From a virus, in the IMG/VR virus record IMGVR_UViG_3300030406_003049, positions 30,948 through 94,947 of that record: a stretch of 64,000 bases of DNA. The stretch is one strand, 5' to 3'. The notes beneath the pieces are model-generated. The model saw nothing but the letters and a program-made list of their open reading frames with translations, was not told the origin of the DNA and searched no databases. A program made the translations under genes and the position numbers. Shown here in pieces: positions 7,594 to 61,091 of this stretch. Each line of letters begins with the position of its first letter. Position 1 is the first letter of the stretch.

Positions 7594-7930
7594 TTTCCAC
7601 TTGCATGTAATCCATACCTTCTTTTAATAAATCACTAATGTATTGGCTATCGTCTTGAAAAGAACCTGCTAAAGCAATATTTAGATTAGTGTTGGCTACT
7701 CTACCAAATAGAGAAGCCATCTCGGAATCTTCTTTAGTTTCAATTACTGTTATGTGTTTTTCAAAATCGTCTACCAAAACAACATTACTATTTATCTTAA
7801 TTGCTACATATAAGCCCTTAGTTAAAATAAATAAATCCTCATCGGACATATCACTATACACCGCAAAAGAAAAGATAGATACCTTACCAAATTTATTTAT
7901 CATCAATTCTATTTCCGGTGGATTATTCAT
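7553..7930 (-). CDS. Hypothetical protein
   Basis: 125-aa coupled ORF. Confidence 0.55.
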   Translation of the reverse strand: MNNPPEIELMINKFGKVSIFSFAVYSDMSDEDLFILTKGLYVAIKINSNVVLVDDFEKHITVIETKEDSEMASLFGRVANTNLNIALAGSFQDDSQYISDLLKEGMDYMQVENEFIGFFEVESNV

Positions 7931-9459
7931 ACAAGTGCCTCCACATCTTCTATCGTATTTATATCCGCCACAAACTTATCATGTCTTATTCTTTTACATC
8001 GTGGGAATCTTAGCCCATAATTGCCTTTAGCATCTTGGCTAACTAAGTCTGCTGATACTTCTAAAACAACTCTAGGCAATAAGTTATATGTGCCGTTATC
8101 ATAAGTTTCAACATTCTTTCTAAGTTCATTTGTTAGCCAAACTAAATCAGCATCACTAAAACCTGTTCCAATAGAACCGATTGATTTGAAGCCACTATCG
8201 CTCTTTACAGAAATACCAAAAGTTCCGAATACATTTGCTCTTGAGCCTTCGCCATATTTAGCAGTAGTAATGGCCACATCTAATTCAATGCGAGGAGGCT
8301 TGTATTTAGCCCACCCTGCGCTTCTTTTACCTGCCTCATAGGGTAAACTAGTATCTTTGACAATAATGCCCTCAAAACCATCGTTAATTGCTCTATTATA
8401 GAATGCTAGAACATCACCGCCCTCTTCCATTCTATGTGCTTGGTCGGGCAGTTGTGAAAATTTAGCCAATCTTTCAGCGTAAGGTAAGTCCATTATAGTT
8501 TCATCACCAAACTTAAGACAATCAAATATAACCCACTTGACTTTAACTTTCTGTAGTGCTTCTTCATGGTCTTTAGAATGAACTCTTGTTCCCATTAGTT
8601 TATGTTCAGCAGGTGAACCATCATCTTTAATTGGGTATATTTCACCATCAAGAATACAATCTACTTCATATTGTCTAACTGTTTCTACAACATCTTGAAA
8701 TTGAGGAGTAGCGATATTACCTTTACGATTAAAGATAATTACACTATCTCCTTGTTTGTGTATTTGGTATCTATTGCCGTCATATTTGTAATCAACAATT
8801 TTATCTTTAGGCCATTTATTCATAGGAACTTCTTTTGCTAACATTGGTTTTACAAAAGAGCCATGAGATAATTTCATAGGCGGTTCTTCTTTCATTTCAT
8901 AATATACACAAAGATTACCTAAACTGTTGAAGTTAGCATGTTTCTTTACTTCACTAATTTTCTTGTCGTAGTGTTTTGCTAATATCTTTTTAACGACTCC
9001 GCTATCAATGCCGTTTGTTGGTGAACCTAACCAGTATCTAACAAACCATTTTCTTTCTAAGGCTGACATTTTTAATAAAACATCTTGCACTAAAAGGAAA
9101 GAGGCATCGTTTACAGAACCACAAGCGTTCTCTAAAACTCTTAGAACAGAAACGATACCTATGTTTCTTTGAGTTTCTGCCCCTGTATCTAGTAAATATA
9201 TTGCTTCTCCTAATTCTCCATCTATTGCATACAAGGTTTCTATTTCATCGTCAAAGCAATTAAAAATCTTAGTTAGCCAAGACTTAGCCTTTGCTAAACC
9301 AATATTATTACTAGGGTATTCTCTAGCCAAAATCTGTATTGCTACGCTTTTACTAGAAGTAAACTTATCTAGTTCTGTTGCTATTAATTTTACTTGTTCC
9401 GTTGGTGTCTTTCCTTTCGTGGATTCTAACAATCGGCTCATCATTTTCCAATCTATCAT
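7927..9459 (-). CDS. lig: ATP-dependent DNA ligase (archaeal type, with DNA-binding domain)
   Basis: KPMLA, KYDGNR (motif I), LDGEI, FDCL, EGIIVK, WAKYK, LRFPR..RIRHDK. Confidence 0.95.
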   Translation of the reverse strand: MIDWKMMSRLLESTKGKTPTEQVKLIATELDKFTSSKSVAIQILAREYPSNNIGLAKAKSWLTKIFNCFDDEIETLYAIDGELGEAIYLLDTGAETQRNIGIVSVLRVLENACGSVNDASFLLVQDVLLKMSALERKWFVRYWLGSPTNGIDSGVVKKILAKHYDKKISEVKKHANFNSLGNLCVYYEMKEEPPMKLSHGSFVKPMLAKEVPMNKWPKDKIVDYKYDGNRYQIHKQGDSVIIFNRKGNIATPQFQDVVETVRQYEVDCILDGEIYPIKDDGSPAEHKLMGTRVHSKDHEEALQKVKVKWVIFDCLKFGDETIMDLPYAERLAKFSQLPDQAHRMEEGGDVLAFYNRAINDGFEGIIVKDTSLPYEAGKRSAGWAKYKPPRIELDVAITTAKYGEGSRANVFGTFGISVKSDSGFKSIGSIGTGFSDADLVWLTNELRKNVETYDNGTYNLLPRVVLEVSADLVSQDAKGNYGLRFPRCKRIRHDKFVADINTIEDVEALV

Positions 9460-11864: not shown

Positions 11865-13382
11865 TTATTCCTCCGGTAATAATACTGCTACATCAGTAGA
11901 ATAGAACAATTGTGCGATAGACATAGCCGCCAAGAAACTATTTTTGGCTACTTTAACAGGGTCAAAAACTCCTGCCGTTCTTAGGTTTTGGGTGCTACCA
12001 GTTAGAGCATTAAAGCCCATGTCTTTCTTACCAAAAGAAACAGAAGGGTTATCTATTCCACTGTTTCTTTGTAAGACTTTCATTGGTTCTTGCATGGCTA
12101 ACTCAAACCACTTAGAACGCTTTTTGTCCATGTCCTTTATTGCTAACTTAGCGGCCTTTGCTAGAGTCAATCCACCACCAACAATAATACCTTCTTCTAA
12201 TGCGGCCTTTGTAGCATTAAGAGCGTCGTCTAATCTTTCTTTCTTTTCTCTCATTTCAATAGATGAAGAAGCACCAACCTTAATTGTAGCAACGCCACCA
12301 CTAAGTCTTGCTATTCTTCTCTTGAGTCTAAGTTTATCATACTCGTCTTGGGAATCTTCAAGTGTTCCTTTTAGTGTAGTTATTCTATTTTCTGTTAGTG
12401 GTCTATTACCTCCAACAAAGATTGTTTTATCTTTAGTAATAGTAATGCTATCACAAGTCCCAAAGGTATGTGCGTGTAGTTGCTTAGGGTCGTCTTTGCT
12501 TTCATCTGTATAGACTGTTCCGCCAACAACTCCTGCAATATCAGCCAACTCATCTAATTGAGCATCACCAAAGTTAGGTGCGGTAATTACTGCAACTTCT
12601 ATTGTCTTTTGTAAAAGATTCATAACTACATTGTTCATAGCATTACCTTCCATTCCTTTACAGAATATAACTAACGGTTGTTTATTATTAGCCGCATGTT
12701 CCATCATAGGTAATATTTCACTAAAGTTTCTTATCGCTAAGTTAGATAAGAAAATCAGTGGACTATCAAATGTGCATTTACCATCTTCACTATTAGCCAT
12801 TAAATGACTCATATAACCTTCATCAATCTCTAATCCTTTTCTTACCACAATTTCAGTGTTATGTGTTTTAGATTCTTCAACAGTAATAATACCATCACGC
12901 CCAACTTTATCAATTGCTTCTGCAATTAAAGAACCCAAATGAGAATCATTATTGGCCGCTATTGTGGCGATATTTTCAATATCAGTATCTTTAACTTTTT
13001 GCGATGCTTGGTCTAAATGAAAAATAGTGGCCATTTTTAATCTATCAATCAAATTATTAAATTGATGAGCATTCATTTCCGGTGCATCTAACATATTATG
13101 ACATAATGCTTGAGCAAGAATACAAGCAGTAGTAGTTCCATCACCGCTACCTTCTTGTGCCTTACTTGCTAAGTTTTGAACTAATTGTATTCCCATTTGA
13201 ACATAGGGGTCTTCATCACTAATATATTTTGTAATTGTGACTCCATCATTAATTACAACAGGTGGATTACCTTGTAATATAACTGTCTTGGCTTGTGGGC
13301 CAAGTGTGGGTTTTACTGTATTAGCAACAATGTCTATTCCTTTCAATAGTTTTTCCTTTACTTCTTTTCCGTGTATAATCAT
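11865..13382 (-). CDS. groEL: Group I chaperonin GroEL/Cpn60
   Basis: TLGP, NDGVTI, GDGTTTA, VGRDGIITVEES, APNFGD, EKKERLDDAL.AT.AA.EEGI..GGG, DPVKV. Confidence 0.95.
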   Translation of the reverse strand: MIIHGKEVKEKLLKGIDIVANTVKPTLGPQAKTVILQGNPPVVINDGVTITKYISDEDPYVQMGIQLVQNLASKAQEGSGDGTTTACILAQALCHNMLDAPEMNAHQFNNLIDRLKMATIFHLDQASQKVKDTDIENIATIAANNDSHLGSLIAEAIDKVGRDGIITVEESKTHNTEIVVRKGLEIDEGYMSHLMANSEDGKCTFDSPLIFLSNLAIRNFSEILPMMEHAANNKQPLVIFCKGMEGNAMNNVVMNLLQKTIEVAVITAPNFGDAQLDELADIAGVVGGTVYTDESKDDPKQLHAHTFGTCDSITITKDKTIFVGGNRPLTENRITTLKGTLEDSQDEYDKLRLKRRIARLSGGVATIKVGASSSIEMREKKERLDDALNATKAALEEGIIVGGGLTLAKAAKLAIKDMDKKRSKWFELAMQEPMKVLQRNSGIDNPSVSFGKKDMGFNALTGSTQNLRTAGVFDPVKVAKNSFLAAMSIAQLFYSTDVAVLLPEE

Positions 13383-16226: not shown

Positions 16227-17078
16227 TTAATTTCTCCTTATTTCATTTATCTGTTTACCTCTCAATTGAGAGCATTGTTCATAACCAATCAAAGCCAACA
16301 GTTTCTTTGTGGTTAGTTTTATGTTAGAAGTGGCTACATTCGCCCTTTCTGCAATCTCTTTCTGTTTTATTGGGTGCAAAAACATATTTGCGGCAATCCA
16401 ACAAATGCTAGAATAGTAGACTGTTCCTTTAACACAATCAGTTTCTTGGGTTAAAGTTTCAAACACTTCTAAAACATCTTGACACTTTGAAGCATAATTC
16501 AAATCATCTGTAATCTTAGAAGTTATTTGTTTCAACATATAATTAGGGTCTGTCTTAACTTTGGTGTTGGTATTGTAGTATTTGTTTATTCTTTTAATTG
16601 CCCTGTTCAATGTCCTAGTATTACAAGAAAATTCCTGCCTTAATTGCTTTAAAGGAATAGGTGTCCTATTTTCTTTTAGAACATAATAAACTACCGCAGT
16701 TGCTTTTTCTTCAATTCCTAAAGTAGTTAGAACATTTTTTCTATACAAATCAGTATAGCATTCTTCAACTCTACTAGATAATGGGTGTCTAGGCATAAGT
16801 GTTGATAACAACATATTACACATTCTAAGCCCATTATCTAAATGAGTAGTGTTGCTTGCTATCCACTTGACACTTTTCTTATTTGAATCAACATGACTTC
16901 CTAATTTTTTCTTACCGCCATAATCCGGTGTGTGAACAAACTCTCCGCTTTTATCAACGGCTCTAACTGTTTGTTCAAACAATTCTGTTATTGCTATCAG
17001 CCCACAATCTACACAAGATAGTTCGCCTAAATTATCATTCATTTCAAAATTATTTCCTTCGCATTCAAGACACTTCAT
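16227..17078 (-). CDS. tfb: Transcription initiation factor B (TFB/TFIIB)-like
   Basis: N-terminal Zn ribbon CLEC...GELSCVDCGLI followed by two cyclin-like repeats (ATAVVYY...P..L; KQKEIAERANV). Confidence 0.85.
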   Translation of the reverse strand: MKCLECEGNNFEMNDNLGELSCVDCGLIAITELFEQTVRAVDKSGEFVHTPDYGGKKKLGSHVDSNKKSVKWIASNTTHLDNGLRMCNMLLSTLMPRHPLSSRVEECYTDLYRKNVLTTLGIEEKATAVVYYVLKENRTPIPLKQLRQEFSCNTRTLNRAIKRINKYYNTNTKVKTDPNYMLKQITSKITDDLNYASKCQDVLEVFETLTQETDCVKGTVYYSSICWIAANMFLHPIKQKEIAERANVATSNIKLTTKKLLALIGYEQCSQLRGKQINEIRRN

Positions 17079-22238: not shown

Positions 22239-23614
22239 TGTTTCTCACCATCAAAAGTCCCATAATTATTCTTATTAGAAATTAGAATACTTGCTTGCCT
22301 CTTTGCTATCGTAGTCAAATCGCCCTTATAGCCTAAAGACTTCAAATATTCTACTTGCTTATGAGTAGCAGGTTCATTAGTGCAAATACTCTTAAGTCGT
22401 TGTAGTTGATTTGGTGTTAAGTCAGTTCCTCTAGCAAGTTTATTTCTAAGGTCTATTAAGAAACCGGATTCCCATACAGAAATGGGGTAGTTTCCATCAA
22501 ATACCGGAAGTCCGTAGTAATCACACATGTTCTTAAATTCACTAATCTCATTGTTGTTAAACATGGACAAATCATTCAAAGTTTTCCTGTCCTGTAGAAG
22601 TTTATCAGCATTGTCAATTTTAGCCTGTGCCTTTTGCTCGGCTTCTCTAATCTTGCGTTCTTCTTCTCTTTTCGCTCTTTCTTCTCTAGCAATTCTTTGT
22701 CTTTCAGCAAATCTTTGTTGGGCTTCTTCCCTTCTTTTTCGTTCTGCTTCTTCCCTTTGCTTTTTCTTGACTGTCATTTCAGCAAGTCTAGCATCTTCGG
22801 CTTCTAATACACGCTTATGTTTTATATCATACATAGCATGAAAATAATTTAAGTCAGCCCATAGTTTATCATTAGGATAGCCTCTAGTTATTTGTTGATT
22901 CTTAGGATTGTTAGGGTGATTCCATCTCCATGTTATTGAAGACATTTGGTAATTAGCATCACCCATTTTACCACTACCTCTCTTTAAGATTTGAAGTCTG
23001 TATTTATATCTGCTATCAGTATAACACCAATACATATCTTTACGCTTACTATTAATTCTCAAGTCAGCCTCTTTGATTTTATCAAACATTTGAGTAAAGT
23101 GTTCGCCATGTTTATCCCACCAAGCGGTAGCAATCATAGATTGAGTTCTTTCATCAATCCACTTTTGAATCATCTCGTCGGTAATGTATTCCTCACTTAG
23201 TCCCGTTCTTTCCTTAATTTCTCTAAGGATAAGATAAGAACCGATGTGTTCACTACCTACGCATTCTTCATTACCATTCTCGGTGTTTCTAATTTTAAAA
23301 TGATAGACAACTCTATGTCCACAAAGACATTTACCCTCATGCTCATTTACCCATGATGGGACTTCTTCATCTAAAGTGTCCGGTCTTCTAAACCACACTT
23401 CTCCGGTAGCAATCCATTCTTCTTTTGCTTCTTCGTAGTTGTCTGCGTTAGATAATGCTACCATGTTAGCCATTAGTTTTCTATCCCAATGTCCATCACC
23501 TAGACTTCTTTTGAACTTGATAGTTCCATCGCTATTCATATAACTCTCGCTACTTAATTCTTCTTCTCTTTCCATTTTTATTCCTCCAAATTCAGTTTTT
23601 TGGGCGTGGCCCAC
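22235..23614 (-). CDS. Zn-binding/coiled-coil hypothetical protein (likely start MEREEE near 23575)
   Basis: CLCGH...CVGSEH, charged coiled coil, C-terminal ATHKQVEYLKSLG. Confidence 0.6.
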   Translation of the reverse strand: MGHAQKTEFGGIKMEREEELSSESYMNSDGTIKFKRSLGDGHWDRKLMANMVALSNADNYEEAKEEWIATGEVWFRRPDTLDEEVPSWVNEHEGKCLCGHRVVYHFKIRNTENGNEECVGSEHIGSYLILREIKERTGLSEEYITDEMIQKWIDERTQSMIATAWWDKHGEHFTQMFDKIKEADLRINSKRKDMYWCYTDSRYKYRLQILKRGSGKMGDANYQMSSITWRWNHPNNPKNQQITRGYPNDKLWADLNYFHAMYDIKHKRVLEAEDARLAEMTVKKKQREEAERKRREEAQQRFAERQRIAREERAKREEERKIREAEQKAQAKIDNADKLLQDRKTLNDLSMFNNNEISEFKNMCDYYGLPVFDGNYPISVWESGFLIDLRNKLARGTDLTPNQLQRLKSICTNEPATHKQVEYLKSLGYKGDLTTIAKRQASILISNKNNYGTFDGEKQ

Positions 23615-25025
23615 AATAATATAGATTTCTCTTTGCTCTTGTTATAGCAACATAACAAATGTTTCTTTCCTCTTGCATATTAGATGCTTTAGGGTGAGGC
23701 ATTCTTTCAGTTGCTAGAATAAACACATTATCTGCTTCAAGACCTTTAGCCTTGTGAACAGTTGATAGTTGAATATCTCCTTTTGATTTACTGTTAAACA
23801 GTCTTTCAATTTCTGTGATTATTCCACCAACAAATTCAGCCTTTGATGCAAATATCTTAACACATTCATATTTGTCAGTTAGTGTGTTTGCTTGATTTTG
23901 CTTTTCAGCCTTAACCAACTTGTTGTATTCAGCAGTATAGTTAGTGTTAAGCAATTCAAGGAAATCACTTGAGGTCATTCCTTTGTTCTTGGTAATTTTA
24001 TTTACATAGTTTACCAAACCTTTGTGCATATCTCTACCTAGAATGTAGGCTGATTTACCTTGAGTAATTAAATCATAAAATGCACTAACTAGTGGTGCAT
24101 TATATCTACACAAAACCATATCTCCCTTTTGTGGGTTTAGATATGCGTTTACATGAACATTACCAGTTTCAGCAGTTTCTAAACAATTGAAATCTTTGAC
24201 ATATCTGTTTGCTTCTGCAACTACTAACTTAGGACATCTCCATGTTAGAGTTAATCCAAACTCTACAACAGTTTTACCCTTCGCTTCTAGTTGATTCTTG
24301 AAGATAGCAATACTTCCGCTATCTGCTCCTCTAAAGCCATAAATAGCCTGATTCTTGTCTCCAACAATAATACATCTACCGTTTTTCGTGCAAGCCAAAA
24401 CTAGTTGTCTTTGCATTTCATTGAAGTCTTGTGCTTCATCAACAAATAGAATATCAAATTGAGGTAGAGGCATGTCCATTACCAATGGTAGCCAAATCAT
24501 ATCATCAAAGTCTATCTCGTTTGTTATGAGTTTACATTCGTCAAGTATTTGACATACTGCACCAACTCCCATTACTTCTTCACGGTCATTAGCGAACTCA
24601 ATATTGTATTCGTCAATCAACTTATAGATTTCTTTTTCATCGGTGCAATCAATCATTGAACCCTTGACTAAACTAATTAGTTTGACAAGTGGTTGTGCTT
24701 GATAATCACGGCCAAAGATACCATCAATGATATTCTTTACTTTCCAGTTGTTTACTCTAGTGTTGCCTACTGCATCTCTAACTGCTTTCATACCTAGTGC
24801 ATGAAATGTCTTTGCTTCTACATGTTCGGGTAGTCTTTCAGCAAGTTCAGTTGCGATAGATTTGTTAAATGCTAAGAATCCCATTCTTGGGGCATTTGCT
24901 CTATTAGCACCTTCTACGATTGTGAAAGTCTTACCTGTTCCTGCACCGGCATTGACTATTACATCATTATCAGTATTCACTATTTCATTCCATATTTTTT
25001 CTTGTTCTTCTGTTCCTTTTATCAT
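23592..25025 (-). CDS. UvrD/Rep-like superfamily 1 helicase
   Basis: AGAGTGKT, LAFNKSIA.EL, VDEAQD, VGD.NQAIYGFRGA, STVHKAKGLE, YVAITRAK. Confidence 0.92.
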   Translation of the reverse strand: MIKGTEEQEKIWNEIVNTDNDVIVNAGAGTGKTFTIVEGANRANAPRMGFLAFNKSIATELAERLPEHVEAKTFHALGMKAVRDAVGNTRVNNWKVKNIIDGIFGRDYQAQPLVKLISLVKGSMIDCTDEKEIYKLIDEYNIEFANDREEVMGVGAVCQILDECKLITNEIDFDDMIWLPLVMDMPLPQFDILFVDEAQDFNEMQRQLVLACTKNGRCIIVGDKNQAIYGFRGADSGSIAIFKNQLEAKGKTVVEFGLTLTWRCPKLVVAEANRYVKDFNCLETAETGNVHVNAYLNPQKGDMVLCRYNAPLVSAFYDLITQGKSAYILGRDMHKGLVNYVNKITKNKGMTSSDFLELLNTNYTAEYNKLVKAEKQNQANTLTDKYECVKIFASKAEFVGGIITEIERLFNSKSKGDIQLSTVHKAKGLEADNVFILATERMPHPKASNMQEERNICYVAITRAKRNLYYCGPRPKN

Positions 25026-25810: not shown

Positions 25811-26004
25811 TAATTCATCTACAGGTCATTGACATATAAAACAGGCTTTAATCATTAAAATGAAAAAATAGGGGTGAGTATTGTTATCAAACTTTACATT
25901 ACATTTTAAAATAAATCAATTAACACTATTCTCCTTAATTTAAGCACTAATGAAGTTTATGTGACTACAAACCTGCACCACAAAGTAAAGTGTGTTTGTA
26001 TAGA

Positions 26005-26410
26005 CGACAAATTTTCCGACACGATAACGACACCCCTAAACGGGCAACTGCGCCTTAAACGACATTTGCGACATTTGCGACACCCCCCTAGAATATATTG
26101 GGGAGAATAACTATGAAGATTCTTAATAATAAATTAGAGGGGGAGAGGGGTTAAGATAGAAGGGGTGTCGTTATTGTCGTATTGTCGGTAATAATATATT
26201 ATTATTAATAATATTAATAATAAATTAATTACTATCAAGAATCTTACTAGTAAATATGCGACACTTTTACCGACACCCCCTGCCTCTATCCTGTCGCCTA
26301 TCCGATTCTTCTATATTATATACTATACAATATGAATATTTCAATAAATATAGGTAATACATTATACATTCAATTGAAAGTGATACTATCAAAGTGTCGT
26401 ATATCTGTCG
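26005..26410. repeat. CGACA iteron cluster around an AT-rich core; putative replication origin
   Basis: 8 CGACA and 6 TGTCG copies, several extended to CGACACCCC; pure A/T tract about 26189-26231. Confidence 0.6.
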
Positions 26411-26504
26411 CTAACATGTCATACACAATTGAGAGCCTATGGATATAAATAGACTTGGTTTACTTTGGAAACCCACAGACAAAATAAAATTTTTGAAAAT
26501 GAGA

Positions 26505-26534
26505 GGCGGATTTGAGTTTTATTTCAAATCCGCC
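26505..26534 (-). terminator. 11-bp hairpin at the end of the cassette array
   Basis: GGCGGATTTGA-N8-TCAAATCCGCC followed by T-rich sequence on the minus strand. Confidence 0.55.
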
Positions 26535-26568
26535 CCTCTAGCAATATTCAACAGAACTATTGTTGAAT

Positions 26569-26694
26569 TTAATCGTGCTTATCGTAGGTGTTCTTGTAGA
26601 AGTCGTCTGTTGTTCTACAGTGATAACATTCACTTACCTTATCACTTATTCGCTTACTACAAGTGTTGCATCTATTTTGCTTCCTAAACTTCAT
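26569..26694 (-). CDS. Zn-finger microprotein (41 aa)
   Basis: Manual translation MKFRKQNRCNTCSKRISDKVSECYHCRTT...; ATGA overlap with the upstream stop. Confidence 0.55.
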   Translation of the reverse strand: MKFRKQNRCNTCSKRISDKVSECYHCRTTDDFYKNTYDKHD

Positions 26695-27440
26695 TGGTTT
26701 CTAGCCTCCCTTGTCATTTTTACAATGTCGGGTGTGCATTTGCTTTCATTGAGAGTAATTGCTTTGAAATTACAATCAATTTCAACATTATCAACATCAT
26801 ATCCGAATTGTTTTGTCTTCAAGACCCTTTCAACTACGCTTTGGACTTTACCAAGTATTTCAAGTGGGAAAGCCACCATGTATTCTTCAATTGTTTCCTT
26901 TCTTTGGACTGTTTCACAACTCCAAAATGTTTTGAAAATCAACTCCATACCACCATAGTTATTTTCAAGTTCTATTCTAATTTTAACCCCATTATCCAAA
27001 ACAATTCTATTATCTCTTTCAATTTCCTTAAAGTTAAATAGACTATTTTCTGTCGGTGGATAAGTATAGTATTGTGTTTCATCAAAAGCAGGAACTAAAT
27101 AATCACCTTTTGGTTGAACCCAATCTTTCTTAGTGGTTTCACTTACTATTCTATCAGTGCTTACATTTTCAAATTTATTTGACAAACCTTCAACTATTTC
27201 ATTTGCAGTTGAAATGTATTGAACAGTAAAGATTAGTTCATCATCAATGTATATACCATGTCTTGTTGATTTCTTAGTTATGGTATTATAACCGTATTCG
27301 GGAACTTCGCCCCAATAGGTTGTCATCATTGTCAAACCTTTCTTTTGTAGTTGATGAGCCAACTTTGCTTCTTCTTTTTGATTGAGTCTTTCATCATGCT
27401 CATATCGTATTTTCATAGTTCTATTATATTCTATCGCCAT
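26691..27440 (-). CDS. Early cassette hypothetical protein
   Basis: 249 aa; own TATA box and GGAGGT RBS. Confidence 0.7.
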   Translation of the reverse strand: MAIEYNRTMKIRYEHDERLNQKEEAKLAHQLQKKGLTMMTTYWGEVPEYGYNTITKKSTRHGIYIDDELIFTVQYISTANEIVEGLSNKFENVSTDRIVSETTKKDWVQPKGDYLVPAFDETQYYTYPPTENSLFNFKEIERDNRIVLDNGVKIRIELENNYGGMELIFKTFWSCETVQRKETIEEYMVAFPLEILGKVQSVVERVLKTKQFGYDVDNVEIDCNFKAITLNESKCTPDIVKMTREARNQ

Positions 27441-27474
27441 AGTTAATAACCTCCAATGATAATATGTTAGGTTA

Positions 27475-27563
27475 GTATATATCGTGGGTTCTCAAAGTAA
27501 ACCATATGGTTGTTTCACTATTACTTTTGTTGTCGTAGACTAGTAGAAACAACCTTAAAAAAA
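27475..27563 (-). repeat. Cassette junction repeat R1 (T-tract, bulged hairpin, ACCATATGGT, TATA)
   Basis: GTATATA 27475; palindrome 27501-27510; GGTTGTTTC...GAAACAACC 27508-27554; TTAAAAAAA. Confidence 0.85.
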
Positions 27564-27572
27564 GGGCGAAGA

Positions 27573-27652
27573 CACCCGCTAAGATTGTGTTTTTTCCTAT
27601 CTCATAAGAAGTGCTTTTCCCTGCACTATATGAGTTTCCGTCTTAGCGGGTG
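27573..27652 (-). ncRNA. Long 3'-UTR stem-loop of paralog B transcript
   Basis: CACCCGCTAAGA/TCTTAGCGGGTG enclosing CTCATA/TATGAG and AGTGC/GCACT. Confidence 0.5.
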
Positions 27653-27701
27653 CTTGCGTGAGTTTGGCGCAACAATGGGTTGTTTTGTGGCTCTAACGGG
27701 T

Positions 27702-28160
27702 TTATTCGGTAGCCTCCGTTATGGCTACGGGAAGTGAACCGTCCCAAGTTTTATTGTTGTAGTGTTGTCGTAGTTTTCCGGCAGTCATGTTAGCCATCAT
27801 TGTCGCATATTCGTCAGCGTCAGCGAATAGACCGCCACCGGACTTACCATGCTTGAAGATAACCGAACTAACCGAGCCGTGATTGTAAAAGTTAGTTGAT
27901 GCTTCTACAATTTCTGCTTTGATAGCGTTGATTGATGCTTGCACATTCTCCGGTAGAGTAGAGCGTGAAGGTAGTAAGTCGTCAAGGCTCATAGCCTTAA
28001 CCAATGCTCTAATACTAGCCCAAAATTGGTCTGCTGATTTTTCATCAGTAGCCTCAAGTCCGGCCTTGATTGTGTTCTCAAGTGCCGCATTCTTGATTTT
28101 CTGTGCTTTCATGTTTGCTTGTAATCCTGTCATTCTGCTTAATGTTCTTTCTAAATCCAT
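27702..28160 (-). CDS. Early-region paralog family member B
   Basis: QFWASIRAL, STLPENVQ, KSGGGLF, WDG. Confidence 0.75.
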   Translation of the reverse strand: MDLERTLSRMTGLQANMKAQKIKNAALENTIKAGLEATDEKSADQFWASIRALVKAMSLDDLLPSRSTLPENVQASINAIKAEIVEASTNFYNHGSVSSVIFKHGKSGGGLFADADEYATMMANMTAGKLRQHYNNKTWDGSLPVAITEATE

Positions 28161-28225
28161 ATTTTTTCATCTCCTGTGTTTTACCACTACTCCAACCCAT
28201 TGAAGCAATAATAAGTGGGTTCATA

Positions 28226-28321
28226 GTATATATTGGGGTTCAACAAAAGCAACACCATATGGTTGCATCAATAGTTCTTTTTGAATTAAGCATAGCGTTA
28301 TTAGATGCAACCTTAAAAAAA
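28226..28321 (-). repeat. Cassette junction repeat R2
   Basis: Palindrome 28254-28263; GGTTGCATC...GATGCAACC 28261-28312. Confidence 0.85.
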
Positions 28322-28324
28322 GGG

Positions 28325-28360
28325 AAAAACTCCCCAAATCCTAAGAAATGGGGAGTTTTT
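28325..28360 (-). terminator. Cassette terminator hairpin
   Basis: AAAAACTCCCCA-N12-TGGGGAGTTTTT, then a T-tract on the minus strand. Confidence 0.6.
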
Positions 28361-28377
28361 TTGACCGAGTGTGATGG

Positions 28378-28749
28378 TTAGAAGTAGTCCATGTATGAGG
28401 CAATATACTTTGGCTTTCCGTCCCACGCTTCACCGTTTACATACCATTGAAAATCCTTTTGATGGATATTAACTCCATTAAATCCGTTCAATCTTTCTTT
28501 TGTGGTGTTAGTTGGCCAACCTGCCGAAGTAATCCACAATTTCTTGAAATAATATCTATCACCAAAAGAACTAGGAACTGTATGTTTTGGATATACACAT
28601 TCGTTGTATGCTATAACATTCCCATGTAATAACAATTCAATTTTTTCTGGTTTTTCAGTTGGCCCACATACTCTAACTTGAGTATTACCTTTTTTGAATT
28701 TCTTTCCCTTTTCAAATGCTCTTAATGCTTCATAAGTTATCTTTCGCAT
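28378..28749 (-). CDS. Conserved phage early protein (leaderless)
   Basis: LHGNVIA...AGWPTNTTKERLN...QKDFQWYV motif; ATG about 20 nt from the TATA box. Confidence 0.7.
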   Translation of the reverse strand: MRKITYEALRAFEKGKKFKKGNTQVRVCGPTEKPEKIELLLHGNVIAYNECVYPKHTVPSSFGDRYYFKKLWITSAGWPTNTTKERLNGFNGVNIHQKDFQWYVNGEAWDGKPKYIASYMDYF

Positions 28750-28768
28750 ATTACTATAATGTTAATTA

Positions 28769-28859
28769 GTATATAGTCGGGTTTCTCAAAAAGATACACC
28801 ATATGGTTGCTTAACTAATCTTTGGTGGCTTTAGCCTAGTAAAAGCAACCTTAAAAAAA
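28769..28859 (-). repeat. Cassette junction repeat R3
   Basis: Palindrome 28798-28807; GGTTGCTT...AAGCAACC 28805-28850. Confidence 0.85.
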
Positions 28860-29140
28860 TGAGAAACTCCGGCTACTCGTTCAAATCCAGTGAATGCGTG
28901 ATGCTTACAGAAAATAGACGAGGGAATACGAGTATAACTAGTATTCTCGCAGTATCAATCTATATGTATCTCCGACCGACTTACATTTACAACTTGACTT
29001 TCGCCTTCGTTTCTCAATGGTGTTATGGCCACTAATAACCATAGGAATAGGACTAGGGAGCATAACGATTTTAACTCTTAGTTTTCTATTTTTATTTCAA
29101 TTTCAAAAATGAGTATCGCTATGCTCCCGTTGAATGGGAC
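28860..29140 (-). ncRNA. Structured ~280-nt non-coding RNA downstream of paralog C
   Basis: No ORF; stems TGAGAAAC/GTTTCTCA, ATGGT..ACCAT, GGGAGCATA/TATGCTCCC; ends at the R3 T-tract. Confidence 0.5.
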
Positions 29141-29173
29141 TGGCGCAACATGGGGATATTGCATTAGTTAGGC

Positions 29174-29668
29174 TTATTCGCTATCCTCCTTAACAGGTAG
29201 CGTAAGACCAGTGATGTTATCATCGGTCAATTCACCGTTCCAAAGTTTATTCTTGTATGAGTCAGTTAGAAGTCTTCTAACTCTCTTACCAAAGTAGTCT
29301 GCTAGTTCTTGAATATCAGCGAACTTTTGACCCGATGTATTACGCATAGGCATAATAGTATCAATCATCAATTCCGGCTCACCAATACCCACAAAAACAT
29401 TTACTACCCGATTCACTACAGAATCCACAACGGCTTGAACTTGTGTAGGTAATGATGGTTGAGTGCCTTTGCGGATAGGGGAGTTTGGGAGTGTTTGACA
29501 CAAAGACCTAATACTCGCCCAAAATTGCTCATATTGTTTTTCAGTTTGACCTTCAACTTGTGCTGATGTTATCATGCCTCTTAGAACTATGTCCAAAGAA
29601 CCAGCATCGTTCACATCTAGCCAAGTTATAATGCTATTTGTTTTTTCTACTAATTTACTATATTCCAT
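29174..29668 (-). CDS. Early-region paralog family member C
   Basis: QFWASIRSL, PSLPTQVQ, TSGQKFAD, WNG; same RBS block as paralog B places the start at 29668. Confidence 0.75.
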   Translation of the reverse strand: MEYSKLVEKTNSIITWLDVNDAGSLDIVLRGMITSAQVEGQTEKQYEQFWASIRSLCQTLPNSPIRKGTQPSLPTQVQAVVDSVVNRVVNVFVGIGEPELMIDTIMPMRNTSGQKFADIQELADYFGKRVRRLLTDSYKNKLWNGELTDDNITGLTLPVKEDSE

Positions 29669-29737
29669 ATTTTTCATCTCCTTGATTGTATGCTAACCAT
29701 ACAATATCCCCATGAAGCAATAATAAGTGGGTCTATT

Positions 29738-29827
29738 CTATATGAAACGGGTATTTCAAAGTAAACCATATGGTTGTGTCAGTCATTCTTTTTGATTGCT
29801 TCGCTACTAGACACAACCCTAAAAAAA
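29738..29827 (-). repeat. Cassette junction repeat R4
   Basis: Palindrome 29765-29774; GGTTGTGTC...GACACAACC 29772-29818. Confidence 0.85.
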
Positions 29828-29884
29828 GGGAAAAAACCGACTACCCCTAAAGATAGCCGGTTTTTTTTAACCGAGTGTGATTAT

Positions 29885-30073
29885 TTATCCTAAACATTCA
29901 TAATCATTCATAATACACGCCCTAAGTTTTTCCCCCTCAAGGTGTGTTAGTCGCTTTTGGTGTAAATATTGCTCAAACTTTTCAAGAGCATATCTTTCTA
30001 ATTGTTCACGGCTCATTGATTTGATTAATCTTATTGTATATGGGCTTACATAGTGTAGTTTCAACATATTCAT
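29885..30073 (-). CDS. Hypothetical protein
   Basis: 62 aa; ATGA-coupled to the Ocr-like gene. Confidence 0.55.
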   Translation of the reverse strand: MNMLKLHYVSPYTIRLIKSMSREQLERYALEKFEQYLHQKRLTHLEGEKLRACIMNDYECLG

Positions 30074-30339
30074 TCCTCCTCATCTGCTTCATTCCAAGCC
30101 TCATAAAATCGTCCTAAAAACGCCTCAAAAATATGACCCTGCATTATTTCTCCAACTTGAAGACCTGTATGTTGGGGTTCAATTTGAATGTTTAACGGTG
30201 TTCCTATTACATCGTGATATGTTGTATATATTTCACCGAAATATACAGGGAGTAAACTCTCTACATATTCATGTATTCCGTCTTCATCATCATATTGCTT
30301 TTTGTATTCTTTTACTTCTTCTGCCCAATCTATTGACAT
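30070..30339 (-). CDS. Ocr (T7 gp0.3)-like acidic DNA mimic
   Basis: Leaderless start MSIDW; DDEDGIHEYVESLLPVYFGEI and VGEIMQGHIFEAF resemble Ocr [22 protein letters not shown] and [13 protein letters not shown]; acidic tail. Confidence 0.6.
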   Translation of the reverse strand: MSIDWAEEVKEYKKQYDDEDGIHEYVESLLPVYFGEIYTTYHDVIGTPLNIQIEPQHTGLQVGEIMQGHIFEAFLGRFYEAWNEADEEE

Positions 30340-30358
30340 ATTATTATAATATGAATTG

Positions 30359-30427
30359 GTATATAATCGGGTTATACAAAGCAACACCATATGGTAATAC
30401 AATCTAGTCTGTTATACAACCATATGG
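30359..30427 (-). repeat. Terminal junction R5 (two ACCATATGG copies, GTTATACAA direct repeat, TATA)
   Basis: ACCATATGGT 30386-30395, ACCATATGG 30419-30427, GTTATACAA at 30371 and 30411. Confidence 0.75.
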
Positions 30428-30574
30428 CTTTGTTCCAAAATTTTTTTCTTTGTTAATTTAGCCTAATTAACCATTAATCGTTAAATTAGGCTCATTAACT
30501 ACTGATATTAACAAGTTAGGACATAAAACTACAACATTTATTACCTCTATAATATTACGATATGTCAAGGAGGT

Positions 30575-30811
30575 TTGTTCATTAGTGCTGAATTACGAAA
30601 TAGATTAGATTCCGTAGTTCAAACAATAAGGCAAGTATTACAATATACAAAAGAGCAAAAAGCGTTTACTGATAAACAAAATAAGGAATTACGCTATGCT
30701 CAAGTAGAGTTAAGAAAACTGATTAAGTATATACAGGATATTAAATCAACCACTGATAAAGATGAGAGATTTAAGGACTATGGTAATACTAAGCAAACTA
30801 AACTATTGTAA
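30575..30811 (+). CDS. Hypothetical coiled-coil protein
   Basis: First plus-strand ORF; GGAGGT RBS. Confidence 0.55.
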   Translation: MFISAELRNRLDSVVQTIRQVLQYTKEQKAFTDKQNKELRYAQVELRKLIKYIQDIKSTTDKDERFKDYGNTKQTKLL

Positions 30812-30923
30812 GTTAAAGTTTTATTGTGGAAATACATAATATAAGAAAAAAAAATTTTCGCTAGTGCTACAAAAATTCCGCCACATTTTTTGAAAAAGTC
30901 GTTTAAAATAAAAGGTGAATAAT

Positions 30924-32153
30924 ATGACATGGGAAAATATACTCAAAGACAAACCACTACTAGATATGAGAAGAATAAATAATCTATATTCCCCATATAT
31001 TGCATATCATGTAGCAGGGTTGATAGAATCCGAACTTTATGGAAAACTTAGAACTATTCCGTATAATGAAAAAATAAGCGACGCTTTAGAATATTGCATT
31101 AGTTTTGATTATAACGAATTTGCAGAAGAGATATTTAGTGGAAGCAAGGGCGACTATGGTATAGCAGATAAAGAAGCCGAAGGGTTGTATAATGATGGTA
31201 AAAAATTTGGTGGTAAATTTACTCTTAAAGTAAGATGGGAAAAACCCATGTATCAGTTTGAAGGAGTAGAAGAAGTTGGTAAAAAATTAGACGGTGTTGA
31301 ATTAGATATAGAATATGAAGGTTCATGGGCTAAAAATTATCAAGGTGTAAAACTAGGAAAGGGGCAGAATGTTAAAAATTTCAAAATCAATGCTTCTTCA
31401 ATTAAAAAACAACTAGACGAGGCACTAGAAGGTGCAACCATTAAACACGACGGAGAAGAATATGGAGTAATGTTAAGATTTTTAGACAAGCCTGACTTTA
31501 AAATTAAGGCTCTTCAAGACTTAATTGGGCGAGCATATATGGACTATGGCGGCACTATTGGTGACGACCCTGCAAGAAGTTATCCAAATTATAATAAAAG
31601 ACCAACTAGTAAAACTAAGAAAGAGTCTTGGCGTAGCGTTTTGCGAACTAGTGCTAACTTTGGCGGTAAGGGTAGAAGGAGCGACAAGAAAGTAGATGCT
31701 TATATGAAGGCTCTTGATATTGACAATGACCCCGAATCCATAGCAGATATGCAATCCGGTAAAAAACTCATACAAAATGATGTAGAAATTGCCGAAGGAA
31801 TAAGTGTAGATGATTTCTACAAAATAATGGATAAAGCGAATGTAAGTCAAGAAAAGTTAGAAGAAGAAGAAGAAGAGGCAGATGCGGAAGGTAGAGATGA
31901 ACTGATTTTTTACTTGCAGGGTGAAATGTCATCACTTGGTAAATTGGATTTAAATATAACTGTTCCTAATCTTGAGGAGCGAAACACAAAGCGTAGCAGA
32001 TATGGTTATATTGATGGAACTTATACCCCACTTACTTTTAACGAATATATGGAATTAGAAAACATAAAGGCTAAACAACATATATTTGAGATTGAAAAAG
32101 TAAAAGAAGGTTTTATGAAAATTTTTGAAGAAGTAAAAACATTAGGTGAATAA
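30924..32153 (+). CDS. WxxILK-tagged hypothetical protein
   Basis: MTWENILK after GGTGA RBS. Confidence 0.7.
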   Translation: MTWENILKDKPLLDMRRINNLYSPYIAYHVAGLIESELYGKLRTIPYNEKISDALEYCISFDYNEFAEEIFSGSKGDYGIADKEAEGLYNDGKKFGGKFTLKVRWEKPMYQFEGVEEVGKKLDGVELDIEYEGSWAKNYQGVKLGKGQNVKNFKINASSIKKQLDEALEGATIKHDGEEYGVMLRFLDKPDFKIKALQDLIGRAYMDYGGTIGDDPARSYPNYNKRPTSKTKKESWRSVLRTSANFGGKGRRSDKKVDAYMKALDIDNDPESIADMQSGKKLIQNDVEIAEGISVDDFYKIMDKANVSQEKLEEEEEEADAEGRDELIFYLQGEMSSLGKLDLNITVPNLEERNTKRSRYGYIDGTYTPLTFNEYMELENIKAKQHIFEIEKVKEGFMKIFEEVKTLGE

Positions 32154-32154
32154 T

Positions 32155-32430
32155 ATGACATGGAAAGATATGTTGAAGAAAGATGATGGAAGAAAGGAAT
32201 TGAGACGAGAGATACTTCATCATAGAAGGAAGAAAGAAAGCAAGAAGCGTCAAATGGATAGGAAGAACCAAGATAGTAAAAAACCAAAAAGAAAAGTGAA
32301 TTATGCTAATCCAACAAGACTTGAGGATTTTCCTGAACATATAAAGGGAATTAGCCTACCTAGTAGTTTTGACCCCGATAAAGATAGTGTAGAAGATTAT
32401 CTTAAAGACCCTAAAAGATTTGAAAGGTGA
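32155..32430 (+). CDS. WxxILK-tagged basic protein
   Basis: MTWKDMLKK. Confidence 0.65.
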   Translation: MTWKDMLKKDDGRKELRREILHHRRKKESKKRQMDRKNQDSKKPKRKVNYANPTRLEDFPEHIKGISLPSSFDPDKDSVEDYLKDPKRFER

Positions 32431-32435
32431 ATAAT

Positions 32436-32687
32436 ATGACATGGAAAGATGAGATAAAGAAAAGAGCATATCGTTATGATGGTGTTTTTTTAGTTAAGTT
32501 AAGAGAGGCAATAGATGATTTGGCTTCCGATTTAGAAGATATTGTTAGTGAAAAAGATATTAAGGAAATGGCTGAAAAATACAAGCAAAATTTTAGCCGT
32601 TATGAAATAGTCATTATGGCTTTAGAAGATGAAGCAAGAAAAATACAAGACCAATTAACCGAAGATGCTGAAACGGCAAAATACTAA
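32436..32687 (+). CDS. WxxILK-tagged protein
   Basis: MTWKDEIKK. Confidence 0.65.
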   Translation: MTWKDEIKKRAYRYDGVFLVKLREAIDDLASDLEDIVSEKDIKEMAEKYKQNFSRYEIVIMALEDEARKIQDQLTEDAETAKY

Positions 32688-32697
32688 GGTGAATAAT

Positions 32698-33129
32698 ATG
32701 ACATGGAAAAACGCTATTCGCAAGGCAAGAGTATATGATTTTACATATACTACTGAACTTGAGAGGCGTAAGCATGGTAGATTGCATTCTATTACTGGTG
32801 GAAAGGGTGTCTATGAAACTGATTATGAAAAAGTCATAATTGAATGGAGTTTGACTTTTGAGAATAGCGAAGATTCAGTATATATCCAAGAGCCGAATAT
32901 TGACAAAATTACTGTAGTGGGTGTTGATGCTTCTTTTGATGAGGGCTTTGATGCGGCTAATATGGAATGGGATATAGAAAATAAAGATGTTGTAGTAGAT
33001 GATGTTCAAGCAGATATATATTTAAGCACTAAGGAATTACCTATGACTTTGATTCCTTACATAGATGCTGAATTGGTAAAAGACGGAGATGGATTGACAT
33101 TAGATGAAATTGTTATTACATTTGGATAG
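32698..33129 (+). CDS. WxxILK-tagged acidic beta-rich protein
   Basis: MTWKNAIRK. Confidence 0.65.
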   Translation: MTWKNAIRKARVYDFTYTTELERRKHGRLHSITGGKGVYETDYEKVIIEWSLTFENSEDSVYIQEPNIDKITVVGVDASFDEGFDAANMEWDIENKDVVVDDVQADIYLSTKELPMTLIPYIDAELVKDGDGLTLDEIVITFG

Positions 33130-33137
33130 GTGAAAAT

Positions 33138-33422
33138 ATGACATGGAAAGAAGAAATAAAGAAAAGAAGTATGAGAAGAAAACCACAAACAAAGATTGCA
33201 GGAGTAGGTAGAGTCACAAGAGCCAAAGACACCGGAACTGCAAAGAGAGGTAGAGAGCGAATGTTAGATGTAGACGAAACTAGTTTAGACGACAACAGAT
33301 ATGAAGAAATGTTGGCGGAGTCTACAAAACAAGAGTTGCTTGATGCTATTGAAAAACTAAGTCAAGAAGATTTAGTTAATATCTTTGTAGCGGCTAGAGG
33401 CGATGTTAAACTAAGGCTTTGA
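33138..33422 (+). CDS. WxxILK-tagged protein
   Basis: MTWKEEIKK. Confidence 0.65.
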   Translation: MTWKEEIKKRSMRRKPQTKIAGVGRVTRAKDTGTAKRGRERMLDVDETSLDDNRYEEMLAESTKQELLDAIEKLSQEDLVNIFVAARGDVKLRL

Positions 33423-33531
33423 TAAATATGACACGGTGTAATTACTTAGATGGTTGGTTTGATGCAAAGTCAAAAGAATTAGATGAGGCCGAGAAAAAAC
33501 AAAAGAAAGATTTGATTACAGGTGAAAAGAA

Positions 33532-33900
33532 ATGACTTGGGAAGATATTGTTAAAAATAGAGATGAGGTCAAAGCGAGAAAGCAAAGAGTTGCTGAAAGA
33601 AGAAAACTCCGAGAATCACCAAGTCATTTTTTACAGTCTGTAAAACAACTAAAGGACACAATTAAGACTTTAGAAAAACTAAGTAAGAAATATGACTATG
33701 ATAAAAAGAAAATGATTGATAATACTATTGCAGGGCTTGAGCAACAAATAGACAAACTAATGAGTATTGCTTTAGATAAAGGAGATACTTTTGAAAAAGG
33801 AGCAGGAGGAGTTTCTTTTGGCGGTCATGGAACTAACCCCGAATTATTTAACATAAGATATGGTAAAAAGCGGAGGAAGAAAGATGGGGAAAGAGACTAA
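33532..33900 (+). CDS. WxxILK-tagged protein
   Basis: MTWEDIVK. Confidence 0.65.
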   Translation: MTWEDIVKNRDEVKARKQRVAERRKLRESPSHFLQSVKQLKDTIKTLEKLSKKYDYDKKKMIDNTIAGLEQQIDKLMSIALDKGDTFEKGAGGVSFGGHGTNPELFNIRYGKKRRKKDGERD

Positions 33901-35038
33901 AAAATCCGTTATTAATTACAATGGTAATGAGTTTTCAATTAGCGGAACTTATAAATTCATAAAAGAATATGAAGTTTGGAAAACAGTTTGTGAAGGAATA
34001 TCAAGTAAGAGACTTCTTAGCGAAGGCAGAAGAATAAGGCGTGATAGAGAAGGTAAAAAGAAAGGAACTATTGATACTAAAAGTGGACAACCTCACCCCG
34101 ATGATTTATACGGGCAATTAAGGCAACATGTCACCAGTGCTTATAGAAGGGAAAAATCCCCCAACAAAGGAGGAACAGGAACTTTTACTCTACTAAATGA
34201 TATAGACCAATTTATGAAAGATTTTCCCGATGTTGGGATTTTAACAGAAGAACATAGAGAAGACCTTGAAGCATTCAAGAAAAAAATAGATGGTTTCAAT
34301 GAACCAAATAGCACCTTAAATCCAAGAAACATAACTTTCAAATCTCCTAAAAAATATGATAAAAAAGGAAAAAACATTGGTGGAGCAGATGAAGTAGAAG
34401 TCTATTATGGACACTACGCTAATGAATGGTTTAAGGCTAAATACCCCGACGCAAAAAAAGCACCCTCAAAATGGTATAGCACTTCTAAAAATACGGCAAA
34501 TCCTCCATTGGCTCAAGCCTTATTTGGAAAGGGCGACTTGGTAAAAGTTGGTCTTAAGCAAGTAATTGATATTGCTATTGCTGAACTGAATAAAGATATT
34601 GATAATGTAAATATCGTAGTTAGGCGACCTTCATTACTAAACAGGTTTAAGTCAATTAGAAAGCATGTATTTTCTTTATTGAATAATAAAAATTTATTCA
34701 ATAAAGACGGAGTTCCTAATTTAACAAAAATGGCTCAAACATTTCAAGGCATGAGATTTACAATAGAAGGAAGAACCGCAGGTAAAAGATATGCCGGAAC
34801 TGAAAAAGAATCTTTGGCTAGAACCGCAGGTATTGATGTTCCGGCAGGTAATATCAAAACTTTTACTTTACAAAAAATAGGGAGACAGGCTATGGCTTCT
34901 CTAATTGTTGCAGTAGTTGGTAAAGGAAAGTCAAAGAAATTAAGATGGGGTGGCTATCTAAGATTAAAGGGCTTGAATGTTCCCGAAGAACCACAAGATG
35001 ATGTGAAGAAATCTTGGTATGAATATTTATGGGGTTGA
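33860..35038 (+). CDS. Basic hypothetical protein
   Basis: 392-aa ORF; C-terminal KKSWYEYLWG. Confidence 0.65.
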   Translation: MVKSGGRKMGKETKKSVINYNGNEFSISGTYKFIKEYEVWKTVCEGISSKRLLSEGRRIRRDREGKKKGTIDTKSGQPHPDDLYGQLRQHVTSAYRREKSPNKGGTGTFTLLNDIDQFMKDFPDVGILTEEHREDLEAFKKKIDGFNEPNSTLNPRNITFKSPKKYDKKGKNIGGADEVEVYYGHYANEWFKAKYPDAKKAPSKWYSTSKNTANPPLAQALFGKGDLVKVGLKQVIDIAIAELNKDIDNVNIVVRRPSLLNRFKSIRKHVFSLLNNKNLFNKDGVPNLTKMAQTFQGMRFTIEGRTAGKRYAGTEKESLARTAGIDVPAGNIKTFTLQKIGRQAMASLIVAVVGKGKSKKLRWGGYLRLKGLNVPEEPQDDVKKSWYEYLWG

Positions 35039-58701: not shown

Positions 58702-58702
58702 G

Positions 58703-60040: not shown

Positions 60041-60064
60041 GGAGAATAAAGGAGAGGATATAAT

Positions 60065-60328
60065 ATGGCTTTTACAACAGTAATACATTTGGAAATGAAC
60101 TTAGAAGGAAACAGAAAATTGGTGTGTGGACAAACAACTACCGATGGAACAGACGGTAATATTGAAACCGGACTTTCTCTAGTAGAGAGTTTGGTTTTTA
60201 CCCACAAAGGCAGTGCAGTTGAGGCTAATGCCGCTACAGTTAATGCAGATTTCCCACTAGCAAGTGGTGATGTTGCTATTAAATGCACTAGTGCTGATGT
60301 AGTCTACTTTCAAGCAATCGGGCAATAA
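60065..60328 (+). CDS. Small virion structural/decoration protein
   Basis: Beta-rich, ends FQAIG; follows MCP. Confidence 0.55.
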   Translation: MAFTTVIHLEMNLEGNRKLVCGQTTTDGTDGNIETGLSLVESLVFTHKGSAVEANAATVNADFPLASGDVAIKCTSADVVYFQAIGQ

Positions 60329-60339
60329 GGTGATTAATA

Positions 60340-60684: not shown

Positions 60685-60694
60685 GGGGATTTAA

Positions 60695-61039: not shown

Positions 61040-61091
61040 TCGCTACATTAAATAGGTGGAGTCTTTCTCCATCAATTGAACAGGTGTTAGT

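Follow-up and report, generated by a model that had tools for sequence, protein, structure and literature searches.

Ocr, the gp0.3 protein of bacteriophage T7, is a well-studied DNA mimic that inhibits type I restriction-modification and BREX. Its fold comprises helices A-D, a long C-terminal helix packing on three short ones, and the homodimer resembles in shape about 24 bp of bent DNA. The Ocr gene lies at the leading end of the T7 genome and is the first gene to enter the cell and to be expressed. In archaeal viruses, to our knowledge, the known anti-defence proteins are essentially only the anti-CRISPRs of crenarchaeal viruses.

Residues His48, Tyr49, Tyr50 and Gln83 of T7 Ocr are located at the dimer interface (PMC11317158). 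Mutation of the section formed by residues 59-73 affects EcoKI inhibition most severely, and the protein stays active when it is cut C-terminally to residue 99 (PMC3439906). About 16 carboxylates per monomer have to be neutralised before the affinity for M.EcoKI drops to that of DNA (PMC2806950). ArdA, which is encoded on conjugative elements, is another acidic DNA-mimic inhibitor of type I restriction-modification (R-M) enzymes (PMC2731889).

Here we analysed a window of 64,000 nucleotides, corresponding to bases 30,948-94,947 of a 94,947-bp IMG/VR virus record rated complete. The original prediction for this DNA was that an 89-aa acidic ORF encodes an Ocr-like DNA mimic, transcribed as a leaderless mRNA, which is the first early gene of an archaeal virus and belongs to an anti-defence locus. 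The nearest known proteins are T7 Ocr and its counterparts in Autographiviridae such as Vectrevirus and SP6-like phages (Pfam PF08684, PHROG 2568; PDB 1S7Z, 2Y7C, 6R9B, 8Q56, 8V45 and 8ZEK).

Relationship of the Ocr-like gene to Ocr

The predicted ORF exists, and its position in the window is as follows.

30070..30339, (-) strand: Ocr-like gene, 89 aa (MSIDW...EADEEE), stop codon TGA at 30070-30072

The gene occupies positions 61,017-61,286 of the 94,947-bp record. An alternative TTG start 21 codons upstream gives a 110-aa reading of the ORF; the MSIDW-type ATG is the start in almost all of 61 homologues of the protein, which show 47-76% identity and are mostly 84-94 aa long. These homologues come from marine metagenomes, where more than 80 were found. 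Pairwise dN/dS values against relatives were 0.15-0.24 (about 0.22 for the Ocr-like gene), indicating that the ORF is a protein-coding gene under purifying selection. The protein contains 21 acidic (D/E) and 4 basic (K/R) residues, with a net charge of -17 and a pI of 4.18, and the median net charge across the family is -16. For comparison, T7 Ocr (read from NC_001604) has 34 acidic and 6 basic residues and a pI of 4.05. No member of the family was found in the GTDB representative genomes searched. Three long proteins from the representative search (P0073, P0080 and P0082) were considered as fused Ocr domains and rejected, as they are repeat proteins matching short motifs.

Searches with the single sequence gave only faint signals: Pfam returned no match at E <= 1, and phmmer found no match in the PDB. 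PHROG 2568 (ocr-like anti-restriction) was matched weakly by the 89-aa protein (E 0.009) and by 25 of 37 diverse family members (best E 6e-5), and any other PHROG was matched by at most two of the 37. When the protein was compared with 50,697 phage records by tblastn, nearly all matches fell in genes annotated as Ocr in Vectrevirus and SP6-like phages; the strongest match had an E-value of 1e-2 and 32% identity over 64 residues. The relatives P0061 and P0069 matched Pfam PF08684 (ocr) below threshold, with the best relative reaching 19.7 bits against a gathering cut-off of 25 bits. The family thus lies beyond the curated PF08684 boundary, as a remote homologue of Ocr. A few family members also gave weak matches to Pfam MCP1_SIFV.

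Profile comparisons were considerably stronger. With the close-family profile (A1), hhalign assigned a probability of 93% to the match with a Vectrevirus Ocr and of 65% to that with T7 Ocr. Two segments had originally been aligned to T7 Ocr by eye, and hhalign reproduced both alignments exactly, pairing IHEYVESLLPVYFGEI with a 16-residue segment and VGEIMQGHIFE with an 11-residue segment of T7 Ocr. A wider family profile (A3), which includes distant representatives from a search of 1.84 billion proteins, was compared with a canonical profile of 29 Ocr proteins (A2), giving a score of 49.9 and a probability of 95-96%. In global mode the two families were collinear over 92 columns. Control scores were 11.4 +/- 2.4 for column-shuffled Ocr alignments (maximum 20.7 of 100), 16.9 +/- 3.0 for shuffling in six-column blocks (maximum 29.0) and 13.7 for the reversed Ocr alignment. 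In the opposite direction, an HMM of the 29 canonical Ocr proteins was run against all 511 stop-to-stop frames of at least 40 aa in the window; its sole match was the Ocr-like frame (E 2.8e-4), the next best having an E-value of 1.3. Against the PDB, Ocr chains were absent from the matches listed for profile A1 and appeared at E 0.4-0.7 only with profile A3. The A1 and A3 profiles also matched PDB 7TXJ chain a ("MCP2") over 63-73 residues at E 0.075-0.095, which we take as a chance match, since fold searches give it no support.

An AlphaFold2 model of the 89-aa protein, built from the 61-sequence alignment, had a pLDDT of 92.3 and a pTM of 0.82, with predicted helices at residues 5-15, 22-28, 34-44 and 62-88. 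In a Foldseek search of the PDB the best five matches, and six of the best eight, were Ocr chains; Ocr thus ranks top in the structural comparison proposed originally, with weak E-values of 0.8-4.3. Realignment to the Ocr entries by VIA gave Z-scores of 6.4-7.6, with 80-82 of 89 residues superposed at an rmsd of 2.4-2.8 A and 22-24% identity, the next non-Ocr entry having a Z-score of 3.0. In an all-against-all VIA comparison with 48,161 representative PDB chains, which is independent of Foldseek, T7 Ocr (1S7Z) ranked first (Z 6.7, 82 of 89 residues aligned, rmsd 2.8 A, 24% identity), followed by chains with Z-scores of 5.5 and 5.2 and identities of 5-11%. Since a Z-score of about 7 alone can arise from a common helical arrangement, a second, divergent relative (L017, 27% identical to the 89-aa protein; alignment A4) was modelled, with a pLDDT of 89.0. 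For this model 1S7Z was again first of the 48,161 chains (Z 8.4, 92 of 94 residues aligned, rmsd 3.1 A, 23% identity) and the only one exceeding a Z-score of 5, the next chain having 4.8. Both models of the family match the Ocr fold with its helices A-D. The likeness to Ocr that had been claimed is thus borne out by sequence profile, fold and charge, and the family is very probably homologous to Ocr.

In the models the four helices of the protein have the same order and packing as in Ocr, with 80-92 residues superposing at 2.4-3.1 A and 23-24% identity. The motifs YDD, D-x-IHE-x-x-[DE], P-x-Y-[YF]-x-[DE]-I, G-L and I-[LM]-Q-x-x-I-[YF]-E are common to Ocr and the Ocr-like family. Both proteins carry a strongly negative net charge with hardly any basic residues and end in an acidic tail, and each is the product of a small stand-alone gene within a viral accessory region. 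Acidic residues are conserved across the Ocr-like family at E11, D17, D18, E19, D20, E24, E27, E36, D43 and the terminal EEE. Of these, the first eight are matched by acids in the Ocr family, in the literature numbering E20, D25, D26, D32, D35, the consensus Glu after His, D42 and D51; over helix A, loop 1 and helix B, the acids align with Ocr D12, E16, E20, D25, D26, D32, D35, D42 and D51. P-x-Y-[YF], the best conserved of the shared motifs, and I-[LM]-Q correspond to the interface residues His48, Tyr49, Tyr50 and Gln83 of Ocr. The conservation of these motifs fits a retained homodimer.

The protein also differs from Ocr. It is 28 residues shorter than T7 Ocr (89 versus 117 aa): approximately the first eight Ocr residues and a portion of loop 1 are missing, and the acidic tail is cut down to 3-4 residues. 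Loop 2 is five residues shorter near the Gly-Leu turn. The charge density is lower, with 21 rather than 34 acidic residues, and the equivalent of Ocr 59-73 (loop 2) contains one acid (family median two), whereas T7 Ocr has six. The truncation (PMC3439906) and carboxylate-neutralisation (PMC2806950) results for T7 Ocr nevertheless make a short, less charged form plausible. The carrier differs as well, a magrovirus-like, presumably archaeal virus of about 95 kb rather than a T7-like podovirus, and the gene lies away from the genome end at a variable position within an array of cassettes, unlike the T7 gene at the leading end. ArdA would be similar in the kind of function proposed for the Ocr-like protein; its proteins are larger and have an unrelated fold, and ArdA chains were absent from the structural and sequence matches.

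The cassette array and its promoters

The Ocr-like gene belongs to an array of five (-) strand cassettes. The features upstream of the gene and in the array are listed below.

30340..30428, (-) strand: promoter region of the Ocr-like cassette, from the sequence layout
30360-30367, (-) strand: TATA-like box ATTATATA, 20 nt from the ATG of the Ocr-like gene
30370-30372, (-) strand: CCC element of the Ocr-like promoter region
30386-30395, (-) strand: palindrome ACCATATGGT of the Ocr-like promoter region
30420-30427, (-) strand: second CCATATGG of the Ocr-like promoter region
27501-30428 (G000 58448-61374): ACCATATGG(T) sites, 14-17 nt upstream of a CCC and a TATA-like box
26691..29677, (-) strand: four further single-gene cassettes (167, 123, 152 and 249 aa) with the same promoter type
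28378-28749, (-) strand: 123-aa cassette protein, matching Kyano_Gp96 (Pfam, E 1e-12) and phrog_554 (E 1e-18)
29885..30073, (-) strand: 62-aa ORF, a possible second cistron of uncertain reality, with its ATG overlapping the stop of the Ocr-like gene (ATGA)
29802..29881, (-) strand: terminator-like 3' module of the Ocr-like cassette (ATCACACTCGGT, A-tract, 16-bp hairpin, T-tract)

The layout CCATATGG-N(14-17)-CCC-N(2-4)-TATA precedes all five cassettes between 26.7 and 30.4 kb. There are six ACCATATGG sites in the whole 94.9-kb genome, all of them within the array, and 0.56 would be expected in the window. From its distribution, the palindrome ACCATATGG(T) looks like a putative binding site for a regulator dedicated to this class of promoter. 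Nine related loci also have it ahead of the Ocr-like gene; in more distant relatives the gene is found inside operons, behind a Shine-Dalgarno sequence.

No Shine-Dalgarno sequence was found ahead of the ATG of the Ocr-like gene, which together with the TATA-like box at 20 nt implies a leaderless mRNA. The same arrangement, with 20-22 nt from TATA box to ATG and no Shine-Dalgarno sequence, is present in the 123-aa cassette, suggesting leaderless mRNAs for both; the remaining three cassettes have leaders with a GGAG-type site. The leaderless start originally proposed is thus a reasonable reading of the promoter.

The proposal that the Ocr-like gene is the first early gene finds no support: the gene lies well inside the 94,947-bp record, relatives place it at different ranks among the cassettes, and its promoter type is common to the four other cassettes. 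Since the palindrome ACCATATGGT is confined to five promoters of the same class, the gene appears to be one of a co-regulated set of accessory cassettes and not a unique "first" gene, and nothing sets it apart in timing. In the window it heads the (-) side of a strand switch at about 30.4-30.6 kb, and L008 is the only relative in which it again lies beside a strand switch. In the closest IMG/VR relatives (L004 and L005) it is the fourth cassette, directly before a 156-aa gene and UvrD, and in L013 it is flanked by two other cassettes; the order of the cassettes is reshuffled among relatives. We also considered the gene as a marker of the physical genome end and rejected this, as it is internal in the record and the ends of L010 and L015, a few hundred bases upstream, are assembly breaks, given that the sister contigs L012 and L017 continue upstream. 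Metatranscriptome contigs from four labelled runs cover the 152-aa and 167-aa cassettes, which may have abundant or stable transcripts; the Ocr-like gene is uncovered, which is uninformative either way. Contigs of the marine RNA-Seq run X1 match window positions 27647-28206 and 29191-29711 at 100% identity and leave the rest of 26000-35000 uncovered.

Among the other cassette products, the 152-aa protein is a paralogue of the 167-aa protein. Kyano_Gp96/phrog_554, the family of the 123-aa protein, also occurs in cyanophages and is an example of a gene common to bacterial and putative archaeal viruses. Apart from the Ocr-like protein, no cassette product matched a known anti-defence family in Pfam or PHROG, and the ESM Atlas gave no lead for the 62-aa or the 167-aa protein. 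As these proteins have no recognisable function, the description of the array as a putative anti-defence locus has its basis in the Ocr-like gene alone.

The 62-aa ORF had no homologue in 15 related loci and no fold or family lead. The GGAGG ahead of its ATG consists of the conserved C-terminal EEE codons of the Ocr-like gene, and its position in relatives is empty or occupied by unrelated small ORFs. Distant relatives carry a zinc-ribbon-like ORF of 36-39 aa, containing two CxxC pairs, that overlaps the stop of the Ocr-like gene (L014:530-640, L015:734-853 and L017:6263-6382) and could be a conserved partner of the gene in this branch. The terminator-like module is a direct repeat (family D4) common with the module of another cassette at 28296-28375, and its predicted RNA fold has -27.7 kcal/mol (z -3.5). 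Across the strand switch, a start module of about 48 nt (AGGTGAATAATATGACATGGAAAGA...; family D1) is common to five consecutive (+) strand genes at 30906-33167, with a variant in a sixth at about 33532; through this module, proteins that are otherwise unlike one another start with M(N)NMTW(K/E)(D/E/N).

Proposed function, host and competing explanations

From the sequence comparisons and the models, the protein is a compact variant of Ocr that probably acts as a DNA mimic. The reading we favour, with moderate confidence, is that it is a compact, divergent homologue of T7 Ocr in a magrovirus-like virus that blocks a DNA-targeting defence enzyme of the host. The gene would probably be transcribed as a leaderless mRNA from one of the five promoters of the same class. 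Two copies of the product would pair, as in Ocr, by way of the conserved P-x-Y-[YF]-x-[DE]-I region to give a homodimer, and carboxylates on the dimer surface would imitate the DNA backbone. The protein would then occupy the DNA-binding groove of a host defence enzyme, most likely a type I R-M enzyme or a BREX-type methyltransferase, and unmodified viral DNA would be protected after entry. Type I R-M is an obvious candidate target because roughly one in two genomes of bacteria and archaea encodes such a system (PMC3874165). The literature searched on restriction-modification in Poseidoniales yielded nothing useful, and the methyltransferase families PF01555 and PF00145, the two that were searched, are absent from the viral genome.

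Demonstrated primary roles of Ocr-family proteins are all anti-defence. The protein could instead be an Ocr-fold DNA mimic serving host takeover, with a target other than restriction or BREX enzymes, such as the archaeal RNA polymerase, initiation factors, or chromatin or repair proteins. With its loop-2 charge reduced, the protein may bind something else: bacterial RNA polymerase is also a ligand of T7 Ocr (PMC7064336), and 6R9B is among the best structural matches. The acids of loop 2 that are relevant for EcoKI (PMC3439906) are those that are reduced, suggesting a different binding surface, and the neighbouring cassettes have no known anti-defence similarity. However, the family has kept the Ocr acids in helix A and loop 1 as well as the motifs of the dimer interface, and nothing here points to any particular alternative target. 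We therefore consider a non-defence target unlikely and retain a defence enzyme as the favoured one.

The archaeal aspect of this reading depends on the genome type. The following features of the window are informative in this respect.

4244-5158, (-) strand: RFC-type clamp loader
7927-9459, (-) strand: ATP-dependent DNA ligase, in the replication block
11865-13382, (-) strand: thermosome-type chaperonin
16227-17078, (-) strand: TFIIB-like zinc-ribbon protein
23592-25025, (-) strand: UvrD helicase
54843-57392, (+) strand: second ATP-dependent DNA ligase, inside the structural block

The (+) half encodes a terminase, a portal protein, the second ligase, a prohead protease and an HK97-type capsid protein, for which the matches in the phage collection were only viruses of haloarchaea and methanogen-related archaea. 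Group A magroviruses are known to have genomes of about 100 kb that encode replication proteins of archaeal type, a thermosome subunit and two ligases, of which one lies in the structural block; the pair of ATP-dependent ligases, one each in the replication and structural blocks, is known in both group A and group B magroviruses (PMC5434244). This feature set is present in the 94,947-bp genome, which in its gene content matches a group A magrovirus-like tailed virus. The IMG/VR relatives of the Ocr-like gene lie on similar contigs with UvrD, a TFIIB-like gene or ribonucleotide reductase. The original assignment to an archaeal virus is thus reasonable, and the host is probably a Marine Group II (Poseidoniales) archaeon, this host having itself been inferred for magroviruses, which have no isolate (PMC5434244).

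That inferred host and the absence of the Ocr-like family from the GTDB representative genomes leave some room for a bacterial host, in which case the protein would simply be one more Ocr homologue of a phage, with no bearing on archaea. In addition, a thermosome-type chaperonin 35% identical to that of the window is encoded on a contig of 99,507 bp (L019, CAZGFG010000003.1) binned as an uncultured gammaproteobacterium; its size of about 100 kb suggests a mis-binned magrovirus-like virus. A bacterial host is rendered quite improbable by the archaeal-type RFC, the thermosome-type chaperonin, the TFIIB zinc-ribbon protein and the two ATP-dependent ligases, which are the magrovirus signature (PMC5434244), by the limitation of the capsid matches to haloarchaeal and methanogen-related viruses, and by promoters with a TATA-box layout and predicted leaderless starts. 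The distant relative L014 also adjoins a TFIIB-like gene.

A convergent or chance resemblance to Ocr, the protein being some other small acidic helical protein such as an assembly chaperone or scaffold, is very improbable, for although single-sequence searches were weak (no phmmer match in the PDB, no Pfam match, Foldseek E above 0.7) and Z-scores of 6-8 against unrelated chains are frequent for helical proteins, tblastn, PHROG (25 of 37), a profile-profile score more than 10 standard deviations over shuffles and two models with 1S7Z at rank 1 all lead to Ocr only, identity to 1S7Z is 23-24% compared with 15% or less for other structural matches, and the alignment is full-length and collinear, including YDD, D-x-IHE and P-x-YY-x-DI.

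Significance for archaeal viruses and their hosts

A term search of three magrovirus papers (PMC5434244, PMC10160649 and PMC11706807) found no mention of Ocr, DNA mimicry, restriction or anti-defence. For the papers listed by a full-text literature search combining archaeal virus, DNA mimic and Ocr, titles and abstracts disclosed no such protein, and the one examined further mentions Ocr as background only. Within this literature search, the gene is a candidate for the first Ocr relative found for a putative archaeal virus.

In the surface ocean, Marine Group II archaea rank with the most abundant of the uncultivated microbes. A broader proposition is that archaeal viruses use Ocr-type DNA mimicry, with a compact subfamily of about 85-95 aa distributed across magroviruses and directed against restriction- or BREX-like defences of Marine Group II; in our judgement this is evenly balanced between true and false. 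If true, it would mean that an anti-defence gene has been exchanged between bacterial and archaeal viruses, and that a minimal Ocr can work without the loop-2 acidic cluster or a long acidic tail. The compact form would be a natural minimal version of a well-studied DNA mimic, directly testable in E. coli. A working magrovirus relative of Ocr would show the DNA-mimic scaffold crossing the divide between bacterial and archaeal viruses, and would open a first route to the defence systems that Marine Group II archaea possess.
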